Positions 19,542 to 25,599 of a DNA stretch of 64,000 nucleotides are shown here, piece by piece (position 1 is the stretch's first letter; each line of letters opens with the position of its first letter). The position numbers and the translations under genes are program-made. Origin of the DNA: Bacteroidota bacterium. GTDB taxonomy: Bacteria; Bacteroidota; Bacteroidia; Bacteroidales; JACABE01. The notes under the pieces are model-generated. The model worked only from the letters and a program-made list of their open reading frames with translations. It was not told the origin of the DNA and made no database searches. Location: NCBI GenBank assembly GCA_013377005.1, contig JACABE010000008.1:15720-79719 (forward strand), read 5' to 3'.

Positions 19542-19901
19542 CTATTTATATTCCTGAATTAACACATCGGTTGGAATGTGCATTTGTTTATTAATCTTAC
19601 GAATCATATCCAGCGATAACTTTCTTTTTTTGTTTAATATTTCGGTTACACGACTTCTAAACCCAAGTACCATTGCCAAATCACTGGTTTTATAATTCAT
19701 TTGCTCCATTCTGAATTTTATTGCTTCAACTGGATCAGGTAAACCAATCGAATCATTTATTTTTTCGTAGTTATCTATCAATAAAGACAACAACTCCAGT
19801 TCATCACCGTCATTAGTACCTAATTTTGCATCAAATATCATTTCAAGCCTATTGAGTGCTTCCTGATATTCTTTTTCGGTTTTTATTACTTTGTGTCTCA
19901 T
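19542..19901 (-). CDS. higA: HigA-type XRE-HTH antitoxin (no intact toxin upstream)
   Basis: IKTEKEYQEAL...DELELLSLLIDNYE...PDPVEAIKFRMEQ...EILNKKRKLSLDMIR matches the HigA pattern. Confidence 0.85.
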   Translation of the reverse strand: MRHKVIKTEKEYQEALNRLEMIFDAKLGTNDGDELELLSLLIDNYEKINDSIGLPDPVEAIKFRMEQMNYKTSDLAMVLGFRSRVTEILNKKRKLSLDMIRKINKQMHIPTDVLIQEYK

Positions 19902-19903
19902 TA

Positions 19904-19924
19904 TTATATTTTTTCAGCATTAAT
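19904..19924 (-). pseudogene. Probable 3' remnant of a higB toxin gene
   Basis: The minus strand reads ATT AAT GCT GAA AAA ATA TAA, ending 2 nt before the higA ATG (INAEKI*). This resembles the usual HigB C-terminus (...THxEYDKINAxxI*). The match is very short. Confidence 0.5.
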
Positions 19925-19967
19925 GGGGGCAGTTACTTTTTATTCGCTTGTCATCTGGTGACTTTCA

Positions 19968-20537
19968 TTAATAATTGGTTGGTATTTGGCGAGGAAACTT
20001 TTTATTGTATTCAACAATATCAACAATATAATAACCATCAGAGGACTCAGTAGCAACATTTGTTCTATGTAATTTACTATTACTTTCAAAACAATAAATT
20101 ATTTTGTATTTATACCCTTTTTTTATTTCTCTTATCAAATCGTCTTCAACAGTCTCTAGTTTTAATATAATCTTATTACCATTCCATTTATAGGCAATAC
20201 CATTGTTTGTAGACATTTCACTATCATTTATTTTAAAATTATTTTGCCAATCACTAAAATATTGTTTTCCATCATTTGCTGAACATTGAAATATTAAATA
20301 TGTTTTTTCAAAAGTGTCTTGATAATCAACATCTAAAAACGTAGCAATGCTAAACAATTCAAAAGGCCATAAAACTATAGTATCATTACCATTAATTATT
20401 GTTCGATCTTCATCAATGTTACAAAATTTTGAATGATTAGATTTTTTTTGTTTTACTGTTTGACCAAAACAATCTCCCAAAAGTACTACAATCAAAAAAA
20501 ATGAAGTAAAAATTGATATTTGTATCTGTATTTTCAT
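19968..20537 (-). CDS. Hypothetical exported protein
   Basis: Open AT-rich frame with an N-terminal hydrophobic signal-like stretch from the ATG at 20537; no family recognised. Confidence 0.65.
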   Translation of the reverse strand: MKIQIQISIFTSFFLIVVLLGDCFGQTVKQKKSNHSKFCNIDEDRTIINGNDTIVLWPFELFSIATFLDVDYQDTFEKTYLIFQCSANDGKQYFSDWQNNFKINDSEMSTNNGIAYKWNGNKIILKLETVEDDLIREIKKGYKYKIIYCFESNSKLHRTNVATESSDGYYIVDIVEYNKKFPRQIPTNY

Positions 20538-20600
20538 TTTAAAAATTTTTTTATAAATAACCAACTGGACATTAAAACCCAGCGAAATTTTGTTATTATA

Positions 20601-21422
20601 TTAGAATATTGGTAAATATTTTTCTTTAAAACTAGTGAGTTGTTTTTTTAGCTTTTCATTGCTAGCCTTGCTATAAATTGATTCAAATAGTTTTTCCCAA
20701 GTCTCTGCAAAAAAATGGTTTTGAAATTTTGCAGTTAAAAATTCTGTTTTTACTTTGTGAACTCCTTTGCTAATGCCTTTATTATCTTTTGGGTAAACAA
20801 ATACAACAAATGAGTTATCATCTATATGAATTAGATTTCTTAAAATTTGATAGTTGTCAAAGAAGGGTTTACTTGTAATAAAATTATCATTTAATGGTTT
20901 TGTAAAATTCGAGTACACATTATTAAATTTTTCAATATGTTCTTTATCATTTTTTGCTTTTCCAAATTCTGATTCTGTGTATTTTATTTCAAAATAAATT
21001 TTCTTTCCTGATTTTGTTTCAAAATAAAAATCAAAATTTGTTGCTCTTCTTCCACTTCCACCATCTTTACCATTTTTTTCAAAACAAACTGTTTCATAAT
21101 TAATAGTTTCGTTTTTAAAACCAAGCAATTCTGTAATAAGCTCAAGTTTCTTTTCGCAAAAAAGAGGGAAGAAAAAATTTAAGCACATTGCTTGAGATGA
21201 GTTTAGATGATGGAAACCTGAATGGAGCTTAATTTGTTCTTTTCTCAAGTACTTAAAGCAATCCTCGTTATATGGATGTAATAAATTATCAAACTTATTT
21301 TCTTCTGGTAGTATATGAGAATAACACTTTTTGTTATTTTTCCATTTCCCATTTTTAAGCTTAGGAAAGTTTGTTGTCTTGTAGTTTGATAGACTTTCTT
21401 TGATTTTTTCTTGATATGTCAT
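20601..21422 (-). CDS. Putative PD-(D/E)XK restriction-endonuclease-fold protein (PGN_0703-like)
   Basis: HHLNSSQAMCLNFF, FEK, TNFDFYF...FEIKYTE (D...ExK) and YQILRN motifs. Confidence 0.72.
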   Translation of the reverse strand: MTYQEKIKESLSNYKTTNFPKLKNGKWKNNKKCYSHILPEENKFDNLLHPYNEDCFKYLRKEQIKLHSGFHHLNSSQAMCLNFFFPLFCEKKLELITELLGFKNETINYETVCFEKNGKDGGSGRRATNFDFYFETKSGKKIYFEIKYTESEFGKAKNDKEHIEKFNNVYSNFTKPLNDNFITSKPFFDNYQILRNLIHIDDNSFVVFVYPKDNKGISKGVHKVKTEFLTAKFQNHFFAETWEKLFESIYSKASNEKLKKQLTSFKEKYLPIF

Positions 21423-21487
21423 AATTAAAATTTTATTTTGTATATATTTATTGGGTTTCGAAAATAAAAAAAATAATTTTCTACCTA

Positions 21488-22129
21488 CTAATTATTATCT
21501 TCATCGGAATTTGCAGAATTTTTATCTATAATTATTCCTTTCTCTTTTAATTTTCTTACTATTGGCTCATTATTCATTGCATTTCTTTCAAAAAAACTTG
21601 CCTTGTTATATCGTTCAATTATTCTATCTACATCACTTTTAAAAATAAATGTATTTGAAAAAGTCATATTTTCTTTTGGAAAAACTAATAAATGATCAGG
21701 CAAATAATGAAAAGGTAATGTAAGTATTATTATAATAAAAATGATTGAAACAACCCAAATAAAAGCATTATTATTCTTCTTTTCAATAACTTTCTGTGGA
21801 AGCATAATTTTATAAACAGCATTTTTGTCGAATGCGAGCAGAGGTAAATAAATAAACGGGAGAAATAAAAAATAAAAAGTACTCCATGTATTATCACCAA
21901 ATCGTTTTACAAATAAATTAGCAGCCCAAATTATCCAAATAAGATTAAGATATGGTATACACATAAGAAATAACCACCACCATGGCTTCCCAATAATTTC
22001 AAGAAAAACAATTATATTATAAAAGGGAACTATAGTTGCCCATCCGTTTTTTCCTGCTTTCTCAAAAACAATCCACATACTTGATATACAAATAAACGCA
22101 AGTATTAATAATACATATAAGTAATTCAT
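21488..22129 (-). CDS. DUF5684-like membrane protein with a C-terminal extension
   Basis: WIVFEKAGKNGWATIVPFYNIIVFLEIIGKPWWW motif. The likely start is MNYLYV at 22129; the upstream extension overlaps the structured leader. Confidence 0.75.
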   Translation of the reverse strand: MNYLYVLLILAFICISSMWIVFEKAGKNGWATIVPFYNIIVFLEIIGKPWWWLFLMCIPYLNLIWIIWAANLFVKRFGDNTWSTFYFLFLPFIYLPLLAFDKNAVYKIMLPQKVIEKKNNNAFIWVVSIIFIIIILTLPFHYLPDHLLVFPKENMTFSNTFIFKSDVDRIIERYNKASFFERNAMNNEPIVRKLKEKGIIIDKNSANSDEDNN

Positions 22130-22186
22130 ATTATCTATTTTTTTGCCCAATTCTCTTCGGCGGTTAATAATTGATTTACACAAAAT

Positions 22187-22365
22187 AAAAAAGGGCATGA
22201 ACCTCAGCTTTGTTTTCAACTTCTGAAAGGTACGACCAAGCACCCGAGATCAATTGAAATAAGCAAAAGGAACACACCCATACGGATGCGTCCACTTAAG
22301 CTACTTCTCTGATCTCTGTTTAAAATTGGTCGTTTTATCAAAAGAGAAATGCTTTTAGCAACGCT
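22187..22365 (-). ncRNA. Candidate structured 5' leader (attenuator-like RNA)
   Basis: Nested complementary blocks: ACGACCAA 22232-39 with TTGGTCGT 22326-33, GAGATCA 22246-52 with TGATCTC 22310-16, and cap CGCATCC-GTAT-GGGTGTG. An alternative hairpin ends CATGCCC-TTTTTT on the minus strand. Confidence 0.6.
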
Positions 22366-22422
22366 ATTTTTTATAATATTTTAATTTCTACATGATATGG
22401 TATTGGTTATAAATATTGTGAA

Positions 22423-22430
22423 CAAATGTA
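22423..22430 (-). promoter_or_regulatory. Bacteroidota sigma-A -7 element (TACATTTG) upstream of the structured leader
   Basis: Matches the TAnnTTTG consensus on the minus strand. Confidence 0.6.
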
Positions 22431-22531
22431 CGACATAAATAAAATATAAAACAAATAATATGTAAATATTTTATTTGTTTCTAATTTTTACTTAATAAAC
22501 CACACCTTAGAACTTCTTAATTATAAAATCT

Positions 22532-22735
22532 TTCCGTCCATACATCCAATCCTTCCGTACTTCCAAACATTCTTCTTATACCTATACAAATACGCTCGGT
22601 ACGTATATAAAATTTAACAGTACCTACACAGCTTTTTTTATTTGCTGTACGTACTGCTGTATTCTGCAAATGTACTGCATAAATATGCAAATGTACGGTA
22701 AGAATCTGTGTGCGTACCGGCTGAATATGTGTATT
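22532..22735. repeat. Degenerate 21-bp-period repeat array in two inverted arms
   Basis: GTAC-like cores start at 22536 (GTCC), 22557, 22578 (ATAC), 22599 and 22620, then at 22651, 22672, 22693 and 22714. Spacing is exactly 21 bp within each arm. Confidence 0.8.
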
Positions 22736-22822
22736 ATATAAGGTTTTTCGTAACAAGTGAAAATAATTGATTTTTTTGCAAAAATATTTTCATAAAAATA
22801 CGATTGGAATAAATTTTCGTAT

Positions 22823-22830
22823 TACTTTTG
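22823..22830 (+). promoter_or_regulatory. Bacteroidota -7 element (TACTTTTG) upstream of 23056
   Basis: TAnnTTTG consensus, about 225 nt before the ATG. Confidence 0.55.
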
Positions 22831-22944
22831 TGATTGAATTAACAATAAAAATCTTCAATATTCGTTATTTATTTTTTAAATCAATACACAATGAAACATT
22901 CACGAAAAAGTAAATTTATCACACAAACGGATGATTATAAATTG

Positions 22945-23012
22945 AGTTAAGCGTTGAGCGGTGGTAATGACACTTAAAATATAAAGCAAAAATTAGTTAA
23001 GCGTTGAGCGGT
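22945..23012 (+). repeat. Two perfect 18-bp direct repeats, AGTTAAGCGTTGAGCGGT
   Basis: Copies at 22945-22962 and 22995-23012, a 50-bp period. Confidence 0.9.
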
Positions 23013-23055
23013 TTTATAAAACAATAATAATTTTAAACATAAAAAACATAAGCAA

Positions 23056-24024
23056 ATGAAAAAATCTCAACACACCTCCAAGGGTGTTTCTCAATCGAGA
23101 CAATTGGAAATTTCGAACAACATGCGTCAGTCATTTAATAATGATGTTGCAGCATTTACGGCTTTCGATCCTGAATTGAATGCTGACTATTCGGAGCAGC
23201 TAGGTCTTCAAATTACGGCAGTGGAAGCCATTCCGGCCGACTATATGCTGCTAGGCCAGCAAATGCAGAAAACCCAGAAGGTAATTACGTTCTCCAACGC
23301 AGCCATTGCCGCCGTCAGAACCATAAGGTATTACGTAGAAAAGGCTTTCCCTGACGAAGATCTTCACCTCTACGAATTTGGTTATCCCGAACTAAATAAG
23401 GTAATCAATACCCAAAGCAAGCTCATTTTGTTTCTGAAAAACTTCGTAGTTACGCTGAACAAATACAAAGCCGAACTCATACTTAAAGGCTTGTCGCAAA
23501 CCACTATTGATGAAATTACTCACCTCACCACCGATGTGGAAACCGCCAATATACAACAGGAACAGGCTAAAAAAGCCCGCTACGTTGCCACCGGCAACAG
23601 GGTAAAGGCTTACGACGAATTGTGGAAACTCATTGCTGCCATTGCCAAGGCTGGCAAAATTATTTTTGAAAACGATCCTATAAAACAACGCGAATATATT
23701 TTAGACGTTTCGCCTAAAAAGAAGACCGTTAAAGTGGCCGAAGCAGAAGTAAATGCTGCCATATTCCAGGGCACCGTTACCGATGCCGAAACCGACGAAG
23801 TGATAGAAGATGCTATGGTTGAAATTTTGGGCACCACCATCAGCACCACTACCGATGAGGATGGCGAATTTTACACCGACGAAGTAGTACCGGGCACATA
23901 CACCATTAAAATTACGGCTGTTGGTTACAAAGATTTCCAACAAAGCGGCATAGAACTAACTTCCGACAACGAAGATCAGGAATTTAGCTTTAGTCTCGCG
24001 AAAATGGTGGTAGAAGGGGTGTAA
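23056..24024 (+). CDS. Hypothetical protein: helical N-terminal domain plus C-terminal carboxypeptidase-regulatory-like beta-sandwich
   Basis: C-terminus GTVTDAETDEVIEDAMVEILGTTISTTTDEDGEFY...PGTYTIKITAVGY is typical of CarboxypepD_reg. There is no signal peptide, and the codons are more C-ending than in neighbouring genes. Confidence 0.8.
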   Translation: MKKSQHTSKGVSQSRQLEISNNMRQSFNNDVAAFTAFDPELNADYSEQLGLQITAVEAIPADYMLLGQQMQKTQKVITFSNAAIAAVRTIRYYVEKAFPDEDLHLYEFGYPELNKVINTQSKLILFLKNFVVTLNKYKAELILKGLSQTTIDEITHLTTDVETANIQQEQAKKARYVATGNRVKAYDELWKLIAAIAKAGKIIFENDPIKQREYILDVSPKKKTVKVAEAEVNAAIFQGTVTDAETDEVIEDAMVEILGTTISTTTDEDGEFYTDEVVPGTYTIKITAVGYKDFQQSGIELTSDNEDQEFSFSLAKMVVEGV

Positions 24025-24116: not shown

Positions 24117-25061
24117 TTAGTAGTTTAACCTTGAAAACCTTTCATTAATAAGGCTCTTGAACTTAGTTTTGAAATCATTGCTTAAAAAGCTAATCTCAAT
24201 AAATTCCATCCATTTTATTTTTGAAGCTTTCATCTTCCTGAAAATATTCTCCTGCTGAATACTATCTATTTTAAAATTCTTGAATGCGGATACAAAATCA
24301 TTGCAGTTGAGTTTTTTCTTTTTCCCGTTTAGTGTTAATGCCATATCTTCATCATCGGCAGGATTCACGAGAGCAGTAGAAACAAGATCATAAGCAGGTG
24401 CTAAAACATAACCTGTAGCAGGCAGATTTATTAAAGAAAAATTCTTCAGATGCATATCCGCATTTCCTGTGAGAAATGAAAACAATAGCTGTTCAGAAAA
24501 ATTCACAATATCCAAACCCGGATGAGATGAATAGTTGTAAATAGTTTTTGCCACTTGCTCATAAGAACCTTGATATTTATCTTCGGTTAAATGTTCAGTT
24601 AACTGACACATATCTTCCATGTGAAACTTAGTTTTTTTGTTACGGTCTATTCTTTTGGTAATGTATGCCAGATTTCCCGACTGAAGTCTGATGAGACTGT
24701 GAGGTACAACTTTAATATTGGAAATTTCAGCCAAATGCATGCATACATCTTCCACTTCCGGTAACTGAGCATATTGCTGAGTGGGTGGTTTTAAAATATA
24801 ACTACCCCATAAACCAACAATTGTAAACCTTTTGATATCATTTTTATTTTCAGCAGGCGAAATATCCAATGATAATTTAGCCTGCACACCTGTAAGCGTC
24901 ATCTGACTTTTTACTACCTTCAATCCAAGTTCTTCCATTTCTGATTCCGTATAAGAAATCGCAGGGGGTAAAGCCATTCCAAATATCTTTTTACTACAAC
25001 CTGTATGAAAATCAATTTCATTAGATTTCAAATCTTTGTAACAGTATAAACATTTTTGCAT
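24117..25061 (-). CDS. HipA-family Ser/Thr kinase toxin (HipT-like, HipA_C domain)
   Basis: GVQAKLS, YILKP, HMEDMCQL, GNADMHLKNFS and LAPAYDL. Confidence 0.92.
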   Translation of the reverse strand: MQKCLYCYKDLKSNEIDFHTGCSKKIFGMALPPAISYTESEMEELGLKVVKSQMTLTGVQAKLSLDISPAENKNDIKRFTIVGLWGSYILKPPTQQYAQLPEVEDVCMHLAEISNIKVVPHSLIRLQSGNLAYITKRIDRNKKTKFHMEDMCQLTEHLTEDKYQGSYEQVAKTIYNYSSHPGLDIVNFSEQLLFSFLTGNADMHLKNFSLINLPATGYVLAPAYDLVSTALVNPADDEDMALTLNGKKKKLNCNDFVSAFKNFKIDSIQQENIFRKMKASKIKWMEFIEISFLSNDFKTKFKSLINERFSRLNY

Positions 25062-25063
25062 CT

Positions 25064-25390
25064 TTATCCCTCCTCTGTTATAGCATGAACACTTACGGCA
25101 CCAATACAGTCTTTACAGCAAGCCAATAACAATCCCATTCGGTCTCTGGGATTGAGTTTCCAGTTTTTTTCAGCGATATCCAGCAACCATCCTTCAGGAA
25201 TTAATCCATCGAAAAACGGGAATAAAACTTTACTGTCAAAAGCTTGCTGTTGCAATGGTAATGTAAGACTTACAGGATAAGCACCGGATATTTTCAGATA
25301 ATCTTCGCTATATGTAAAATGATAGCCATTTTCGTCCTGTAACAGCCATCCGGCGGTTATATTCAGTATTTTTACTTCAGCTTTTCTCAT
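25064..25390 (-). CDS. HipA N-terminal domain protein (Couple_hipA / HipS-like)
   Basis: AGWL...YHFTY...VSLTLPL...LFPFFDGLIPEGWL...DCIGAVSV. Confidence 0.9.
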   Translation of the reverse strand: MRKAEVKILNITAGWLLQDENGYHFTYSEDYLKISGAYPVSLTLPLQQQAFDSKVLFPFFDGLIPEGWLLDIAEKNWKLNPRDRMGLLLACCKDCIGAVSVHAITEEG

Positions 25391-25599
25391 AGCGAATAGT
25401 TATTACGGTTGATGGGTATTGCACCCACCTGATGACCAAAAAGCTGTAATACCTGATTTACTTTATCTAAGCGTAAACTTAGCTTTCCTTGTTCTAATTC
25501 TCTTACAAAGCGAAGTCCTACGCCTGCTTTTTCAGCCAACTCCTTTTGTGTAAGATGTGCAAGACGTCTTTTTTCTTTGATAAATTGATACATTTCCAT
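25387..25599 (-). CDS. HipB-like (y4mF-type) XRE-HTH regulator/antitoxin
   Basis: LTQKELAEKAGVGLRFVRELEQGK HTH; ATGA-type overlap with the next gene. Confidence 0.9.
   Translation of the reverse strand: MEMYQFIKEKRRLAHLTQKELAEKAGVGLRFVRELEQGKLSLRLDKVNQVLQLFGHQVGAIPINRNNYSL

Follow-up and report, generated by a model that had tools for sequence, protein, structure and literature searches.

Does the minus strand ahead of a DUF5684 gene encode an RNA that can take two mutually exclusive shapes, and does the choice between those shapes govern the gene behind it? The window, by which we mean the whole stretch of 64,000 nucleotides that was analysed, had been described in a first-pass annotation as carrying here a promoter-driven leader with two competing long hairpins, and every helix listed there is found in its place on the minus strand. 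The structured RNA is about 190 nt long, runs from 22374 to 22185 on the minus strand, gives a full match of 201.6 bits to the covariance model R1 described below and ends in CCC-U6, with the U-run at 22192-22187. Upstream of it, also on the minus strand, we read from the sequence a candidate -7 box, TACATTTG (TAnnTTTG; 22423..22430), about 50 nt ahead of the A-run of the RNA, and a TTTG 21 nt upstream of that box (22452..22455), which we take to be a candidate -33 element from the layout of Bacteroidota promoters. The predicted 5' leader ahead of the structured part (22375..22416, from a putative start site) includes an ATGTAG at 22393-22388. The DUF5684 membrane protein gene (21488..22129, minus strand; PF18936, E 2.4e-21) is the first gene downstream; its ATG at 22129 lies 56 nt past the RNA, and no TAnnTTTG is present in between. 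A Bacteroidota-type promoter, a conserved U-run end and a co-oriented gene thus bear out the earlier description of a promoter-driven leader.

The helices can be arranged in two ways. In the first, the A-run and segment 0 (22357..22374; segment 0, GCGUUGCU, at 22364-22357) pair with segment C and the U-run; the 5' strands of helices P2 (22344-22338), P3 (22333-22326), P4 (22316-22310) and P5 (22309-22300), placed by covariation, follow within 22300..22344; and an apical hairpin at 22269..22293, GGACGCAUCC-GUAU-GGGUGUGUUCC (95% paired), joins segment A (22293-22284) to segment B (22279-22269) across the GUAU loop. The CUUUUGA of P2 meets UCAGAAG at 22226-22220, the ACGACCAA of P3 meets UUGGUCGU at 22239-22232, and the GAGAUCA of P4 also has its partner. 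This fold had been drawn as a pairing of the 5' part with the middle of the RNA; its helices are there, but they belong in fact to a rod spanning the full length of the RNA, in which the 3' segment takes part as well and the A-run at 22374-22367 is paired with the U-run. In the second arrangement, fold 2, segment 0 pairs with segment A instead, and segment C (GAGGUUCAUGCCC, 22205-22193), which with U6 occupies 22187..22205, forms the 3' strand of a terminator stem with segment B. Within fold 2 stands the hairpin GGGUGC-UUGGUC-GUACCU (22228..22245), whose loop and 3' strand overlap the 3' strand of P3 (22239-22232) and the majority of whose stem bases fall in internal loops of the rod. Two sets of helices are therefore mutually exclusive, A:B with B:C and P3 with the GGGUGY/RUACCU hairpin. 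A simple terminator scan of 21400-23200 flagged the apical hairpin as the sole site; the U6 site, whose stem encloses a long structured interior, was not flagged. The apical hairpin (22270-22293) is followed by the U-rich tract CUUUUGCUUA and could be a pause site within the leader.

The element is a member of a real, conserved RNA family and not a one-off. The first-pass annotation had proposed collecting homologues and tabulating the genes behind them, and doing so yielded 59 distinct copies and 16 divergent ones. A second copy in the same genome, on another contig, is 74% identical, with three helices rebuilt by compensatory changes as judged by eye. Of 61 related genomes searched at the DNA level, 16 gave matches, as many as 8 in a single genome; copies occur in 7 of 12 other genomes of the same genus, and many lie near contig ends. 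An exact-pattern scan of one genome per prokaryote species returned 59 loci, 58 of them in bins labelled as uncultured Bacteroidales, Bacteroidia or Bacteroidota or as unclassified uncultured bacteria and one in an Alphaproteobacteria bin; the bins mostly carry lake or groundwater names. The same conserved pattern had no match in viral contigs. Model R1 was built from 25 copies and comprises 188 positions and 67 pairs; run against a sample of 151 genomes from across the order, it is matched over its full length in 43, with up to 12 matches per genome and four in the genome studied here. In a phylum-wide sample it matches 5 of 151 genomes, namely this genome, two others of the same order and two outside the order. 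Four genomes that consist of a single contig or a few contigs contain between 1 and 5 copies apiece. Across the family the RNA is 170-195 nt long. A weaker full-length match (L026, 664-828; 41.6 bits) is a long hairpin with a like base and U-run and a different interior, and the family may be wider than R1 detects.

This family is new to RNA catalogues and is missed by current genome annotation. The view that the RNA could be assigned to no named Rfam family was upheld: at gathering thresholds, Rfam 15 matches only a tRNA in the whole window, and at E values up to 10 on 21900-23100 it gives three chance-level matches, none of them on the rod. At 14 loci with divergent copies, Rfam 15 returned only tRNA and DUF805b hairpins, both outside the RNA; at one of these (L114), two DUF805b RNA motifs (RF02914; 3348-3379 and 3913-3944) flank the first gene after the leader copy. 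Searches of full-text literature turned up no account of a leader like this one, which may still be listed in motif catalogues published solely as supplements. Contigs of three metatranscriptome runs from the same sample do not cover the RNA, which is uninformative either way.

The copies argue strongly for the rod. In the 59 distinct copies, 90.6% of the cells in the 67 model pairs are standard pairs, and sliding the partners by 1 to 3 columns lowers this to 40-46%. Double-sided changes affect 37 of the 67 pairs and 383 cells, as against 22.5 and 115 in shuffles, none of 500 of which reached the observed values. These figures come from an alignment fitted to R1, which leans towards the rod; an independent MAFFT alignment of 25 copies is 88.9% paired in the rod, with double changes in 26 pairs, and the 16 divergent copies, which come from other families, are 90.4% paired (65.3% when shuffled), with double changes in 52 of 67 pairs. 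The rod helices at columns 35-46, 53-60, 69-78 and 83-90 are each 88-97% paired and hold 6 to 8 double-changed pairs apiece. P2 and P4 are hypervariable, keeping their pairing and not their sequence. The molecule that folds also has a strand. Among the rod cells there are 488 G-U against 65 A-C combinations, a 7.5-fold excess, and R1 gives the reverse strand only 35 and 32 bits where the forward strand gets 198 and 202. The G-U excess and the low reverse-strand scores together identify the minus-strand transcript as the folding molecule, in agreement with the earlier suggestion of a strand-specific RNA rather than DNA structure, and comparison of the copies indicates that the rod is under selection on the minus-strand RNA.

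Folding energies agree with this and at the same time restrict what the second fold can do. RNAfold gives the RNA of 22420-22180 a single long imperfect hairpin of -66.8 kcal/mol, against -44.0 +/- 4.0 in 200 dinucleotide shuffles (z -5.68; 0 of 200 as stable). For the window copy, the rod itself comes to -64.4 kcal/mol and the two-hairpin state to -53.5 kcal/mol; at equilibrium the probability of A:B is 0.99 and that of B:C about 0, so that the ensemble is essentially all rod. The rod beats the two-hairpin state in 75 of 75 copies, by a mean of 10.4 kcal/mol (range 0.2 to 20), and a direct-path estimate puts the barrier between the two states of the window copy at 42 kcal/mol or more. Folded alone, by contrast, the 3' half takes fold 2 as its minimum-energy structure (-34.5 kcal/mol), just as had been proposed for a hairpin ending at the U-run. 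When successive prefixes are folded, the 5' domain closes first (0:A, -19.0 kcal/mol at 95 nt), the apical A:B hairpin forms next and the rod then zips up. Since only the rod is populated at equilibrium and the rod grows directly in prefix folding, fold 2 would be reachable only kinetically or with the help of a factor; on these modelled energies it can matter only if the choice is made during transcription or is factor-assisted. The proposal of two exclusive folds acting as a switch thus holds in part: both folds find comparative support, but the rod is about 10 kcal/mol more stable and is the sole fold at equilibrium.

What, then, supports the second fold? A covariation check of both folds had been suggested from the outset, and the second also comes out of it with comparative support. 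Mapped on the rod-fitted alignment, the 3'-half hairpin is 90.1% paired in the 59 copies. Taken together, this hairpin and the 0:A helix are 88.2% paired over 75 copies, with 21 double-changed pairs, a number reached by none of 500 shuffles; the 0:A helix is 97.3% paired, and the B:C stem (7 + 4 bp), which abuts U6, is 95.9% paired in the same 75 copies. The U-run is invariant in alignment A1. The hairpin at 22228..22245 is 97.7% paired in 75 copies, with double changes in four of its six pairs. In the 59 copies, double-changed pairs in fold 2 number 9 as against 7.2 in shuffles, of which 80 of 500 reach the observed value, and so are not above shuffles; much of fold 2 is invariant sequence and hence uninformative.

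More telling are positions that the rod leaves unpaired. Columns 144-179 of alignment A3 read A-U 26 times, G-C 25 times, G-U 3 times and otherwise 5 times, and columns 156-167 are U-A in 55 copies and C-G in 3. Column 158, also unpaired in the rod, covaries with column 165 (C-G 39, U-A 18), which the rod pairs with column 54; in the alignment, the resulting three-way pattern of columns 54, 158 and 165 is typical of competing helices. The invariant GGGUG and UACCU, unpaired in the rod, are complementary to each other and form the hairpin at 22245-22228. We also used a control in which each rod was kept intact and the order of its pairs shuffled: natural 3' halves fold to a mean of -35.1 kcal/mol, those of the shuffled rods to -18.6 +/- 3.7, and only 2 of 1500 are as stable. 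A count on the best tree gives about 10-13 changes per column for the fold-2-specific pairs, with supported branches carrying 1 to 4 independent pairs; with so few, a sign test cannot reach significance, and the count is not significant. Altogether the alignments argue that the second fold has support of its own. We dropped the idea of a structured sensor domain in the 5' half, the interior of which is variable: apart from 0:A, its self-fold stays within column composition (80.6% vs 79.5%).

The family has a consistent place in the genome. Among the 59 distinct copies, the next open reading frame is co-oriented in 50, its start lying 4-338 nt downstream; in 8 the flank is too short to tell, and one is followed by an open reading frame on the opposite strand; a co-oriented frame lies behind all 16 divergent copies. 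Over 66 loci the gap between rod and gene has a median of 73 nt. A TAnnTTTG occurs in this gap at 3 of the 66 loci and at none of the 45 with a gap of 120 nt or less, and 42 of the 59 distinct copies have the same motif in the 130 nt that precede the RNA, mostly 35-56 nt ahead of the rod. With a promoter box upstream and gaps nearly devoid of one, the downstream genes probably depend on transcription that reads through the U-run. Within 45 nt upstream of the rod, 25 of the 59 copies carry ATGTAG or ATGTAA, a start codon with an immediate stop; 26 copies, in another clade, carry YGTTCWT in the same place, and 10 have neither motif. No conserved leader open reading frame was found upstream of the 59 copies.

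The genes behind the leaders are varied. The first-pass annotation placed the RNA ahead of a run of DUF5684, nuclease and higA genes, which are indeed co-oriented here, but the association is not specific, as other members of the family stand ahead of a wide range of genes with no relation to these. In a set of 48 proteins encoded directly after a leader, 7 have PAS domains, 4 have CheB, 3 have CheR, 3 have type IX secretion sorting domains and 2 have Fib_succ_major; SprB, an ion channel, TerB and DUF5684 turn up once each, and many of the others start with signal-peptide-like N-termini. One complete genome has four copies, each of them ahead of a member of a set of paralogous genes of 813-912 aa, from which it appears that the leader duplicates together with its gene.

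These observations lead us to favor, with a probability of roughly 0.55, a model in which the RNA represents a family of cis-acting leader attenuators of Bacteroidales that are decided co-transcriptionally and control read-through into the gene behind. We envision that the promoter drives a leader ending in the U-run a few tens of bases ahead of the gene it serves, and that its four mutually complementary, conserved segments, 0, A, B and C, allow two exclusive shapes: a full-length rod made of 0:C, A:B and helices P2 to P5, or a 5' domain closed by 0:A beside a 3'-half hairpin of about 95 nt that B:C closes against the U-run. The choice between them would be made during transcription and would set the number of polymerases that continue into the gene. 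Termination would be efficient at the B:C hairpin, the rod would let polymerase escape, and a putative factor could tip the balance by holding on to the 5' domain or by masking segment A. The U-run has an adjoining stem in both folds, the base of the rod abutting it in the divergent clade; with a stem beside the U-run either way, termination need not differ between the folds. The unusual trait of such a device would be that the whole 5' half serves as the antiterminator of a 95-nt terminator hairpin.

The trp and pyrBI leaders and the T-box are classical attenuators in which terminator and antiterminator compete. Our element shares with these and with riboswitch platforms a position as a 5' leader behind a promoter and a GC-rich stem set against a U-run, and its strand B can pair with A or with C while an upstream segment 0 can take A, which repeats the 1:2, 2:3, 3:4 logic of the classical leaders. 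Three features expected of an attenuator built on an intrinsic terminator are found together: the position behind a promoter, a stable stem with a U-run, and an exclusive helix that shares a strand with the terminator. Unlike the classical systems, it has no conserved leader peptide, recognisable aptamer or tRNA-binding stem; complementarity takes in all of the 5' half and all of the terminator hairpin, which makes a full-length rod the alternative structure; and the genes behind the family share no pathway.

A similar mix of likeness and difference appears with other regulatory RNAs. The phage P4 CI and P1 C4 immunity RNAs are processed, trans-acting phage RNAs, and the first-pass annotation had likened the switch to their antisense control. 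Common to those systems and ours is a segment with complementarity to two further ones of its own leader, together with a link between pairing and premature termination. Here, however, a single 190-nt RNA contains all the partners, its neighbours are cellular genes, and viral contigs contribute no match. A search of this genome for a trans locus with segment B or the GGGUGY...RUACCU hairpin gave exact matches only in two close copies, and one-mismatch matches are no commoner than those of a reversed-pattern control. We therefore do not class the element as an antisense immunity RNA of this type, and the analogy finds no support. GEMM riboswitches, which respond to c-di-GMP, occur in many copies per genome before signalling and surface genes, and it is in gene context only that our family resembles them, its many copies lying ahead of signalling (PAS, CheB/CheR) and surface or secreted proteins. 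By contrast with GEMM, our RNA has no Rfam match, forms a single rod without a multi-helix junction and gives no indication of a ligand. We also set aside a metabolite riboswitch more generally, given a single rod with no junction pocket, in which the invariant bases of the apparent loops pair together in fold 2.

The alternative that survives best, possible though rather unlikely in our estimation, is that each copy is a stand-alone small RNA gene, its rod being the mature product released at the U-run to act in trans or to bind a protein; fold 2 would then be a mere intermediate, and the downstream genes would be reached by incidental read-through. The promoter motif and invariant U-run, the great stability of the rod, the A-run that can cover the U-tail and the several copies per genome would all suit such a gene. 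Multicopy families of small RNAs are also known in Bacteroides: FopS RNAs are trans-acting repressors of about 65-70 nt with a 5' seed (PMC11697453), and FopS and GibS resemble our family in being multicopy, in occurring in the same order and in having canonical promoters (PMC11697453). Against this account stand the co-orientation of the next gene in 50 of 59 and 16 of 16 copies, the short gap and the scarcity of promoter boxes within it. No long conserved single-stranded seed is visible, because the conserved loops of the rod pair together in fold 2, and fold-2-specific covariation is not expected of a mere intermediate. Identity with FopS itself was rejected on size and architecture, ours being a rod-shaped RNA of 170-195 nt in leader position. 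The RNA also calls to mind 6S RNA, including 6S-Flavo, which is likewise rod-like, about 180-190 nt long and equipped with its own promoter and terminator. It differs in having no large central bubble and in occurring as several patchy copies per genome ahead of co-oriented genes; with no Rfam 6S match even at E up to 10, we rejected that identity as well.

Somewhat less probable is a leader processing or stability element, in which the rod would be the substrate of a double-strand-specific RNase whose cleavage sets mRNA half-life, and the 3' hairpin a default terminator that the rod overrides. The E. coli pnp and rnc leaders are substrates of such an RNase, and a long, near-continuous helix in leader position, with hypervariable P2 and P4 that retain nothing but pairing, is what a substrate of this kind would look like. 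The account leaves unexplained why the internal loops of the rod are invariant and mutually complementary, and why the 3' half is so strongly self-complementary.

A repeat of the MITE, ERIC or Correia type, moving or recombining among intergenic sites with a promoter and terminator on board and owing its structure to palindromic DNA, is in our view a quite improbable identity for the family. The patchy, multicopy distribution within the genus and the many copies close to contig ends would fit such a repeat, as would a copy 100% identical over 202 nt that lies in the bin of another species with a different downstream flank. Traces of modular evolution can also be read in the sequences. One locus of this genome (L003) shares more than 300 nt of promoter region with the window copy up to the A-run and lacks the rod. 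At 1500-1590 of L003, which comes from contig C45, the promoter and the start of the leader are 88% identical to 22450-22367 and drive a 256-aa gene, the identity ending at the A-run. A relative (L013, 1465-1535) has been pared down by deletion to 71 nt, of the rod retaining no more than its base, with the U-run, behind a TACTTTTG box, and copies L061, L097 and L071 have mismatched arms and may be recombinants or assembly chimeras. Such a repeat does not account for massive compensatory change over order-level divergence or for an orientation fixed relative to the downstream gene, and the preponderance of G-U over A-C indicates that a single transcribed strand is selected; the neighbours examined include no transposase, and viral contigs are free of the pattern. 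Scarcely credible is a single-stranded DNA structure, such as a replication or recombination site, for which the one hint is that the second copy of this genome follows an open reading frame with an HUH-like motif seen by eye: that frame (L024, 599-1330, contig C12; 243 aa, the motif being a histidine motif; a run of N, or withheld bases, parts the frame from the RNA) has no Pfam match, other copies have no such neighbour, and the promoter, the U-run and the fixed orientation relative to a gene fit transcription. Co-orientation, the short promoter-less gap and fold-2-specific covariation thus count against the small RNA, the repeat and the DNA structure alike, and we continue to favor the leader attenuator.

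How RNA controls genes in Bacteroidota has been little mapped, the riboswitch and attenuator classes known so far having come mostly from other phyla, and the family described here is a large structured leader present in more than a quarter of the sampled Bacteroidales genomes, with several copies in each. If its copies do control read-through, they would define a regulon, point to a signal or an RNA-binding factor in an ecologically important order and provide a natural example of a rod-versus-hairpin switch decided kinetically; the minimum gain is a well-supported new RNA family. A bolder extension of the attenuator model, improbable as matters stand, would make the leader the cis-acting part of a global regulatory system new to Bacteroidales biology, in which one common input sets read-through at all copies and so brings PAS and CheB/CheR sensor kinases into step with proteins that are secreted or lie at the surface. 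Within a genome, up to a dozen leaders keep 0, A, B, C and the GGGUGY/RUACCU hairpin, with P2 and P4 specific to each copy, and we speculate that the common input could be a protein, a small molecule or released leader RNAs that pair across copies in the manner of P4 CI.

The surroundings of the window copy offer some further observations. On the minus strand at 22400-22900, the region upstream of the promoter is a repeat, parts of which recur at 83-86% identity on two other contigs of the same genome, and which may be a shared upstream control region; a 21-nt tandem repeat with GTACATTTGCA-like motifs lies at 22651-22696. Behind the DUF5684 gene, 19542-21422 on the minus strand encodes a REase-ARP / PD-(D/E)XK nuclease (E 3.4e-49), a 198-aa protein that matches nothing in Pfam and a small protein whose match to HTH_3 is weak and falls below the Pfam cut-off. 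On the same strand, 24117-25599 holds a three-gene HipA-type module consisting of an HTH_3 protein of 70 aa, a HipA N-terminal domain of 108 aa and a HipA C-terminal domain of 314 aa.
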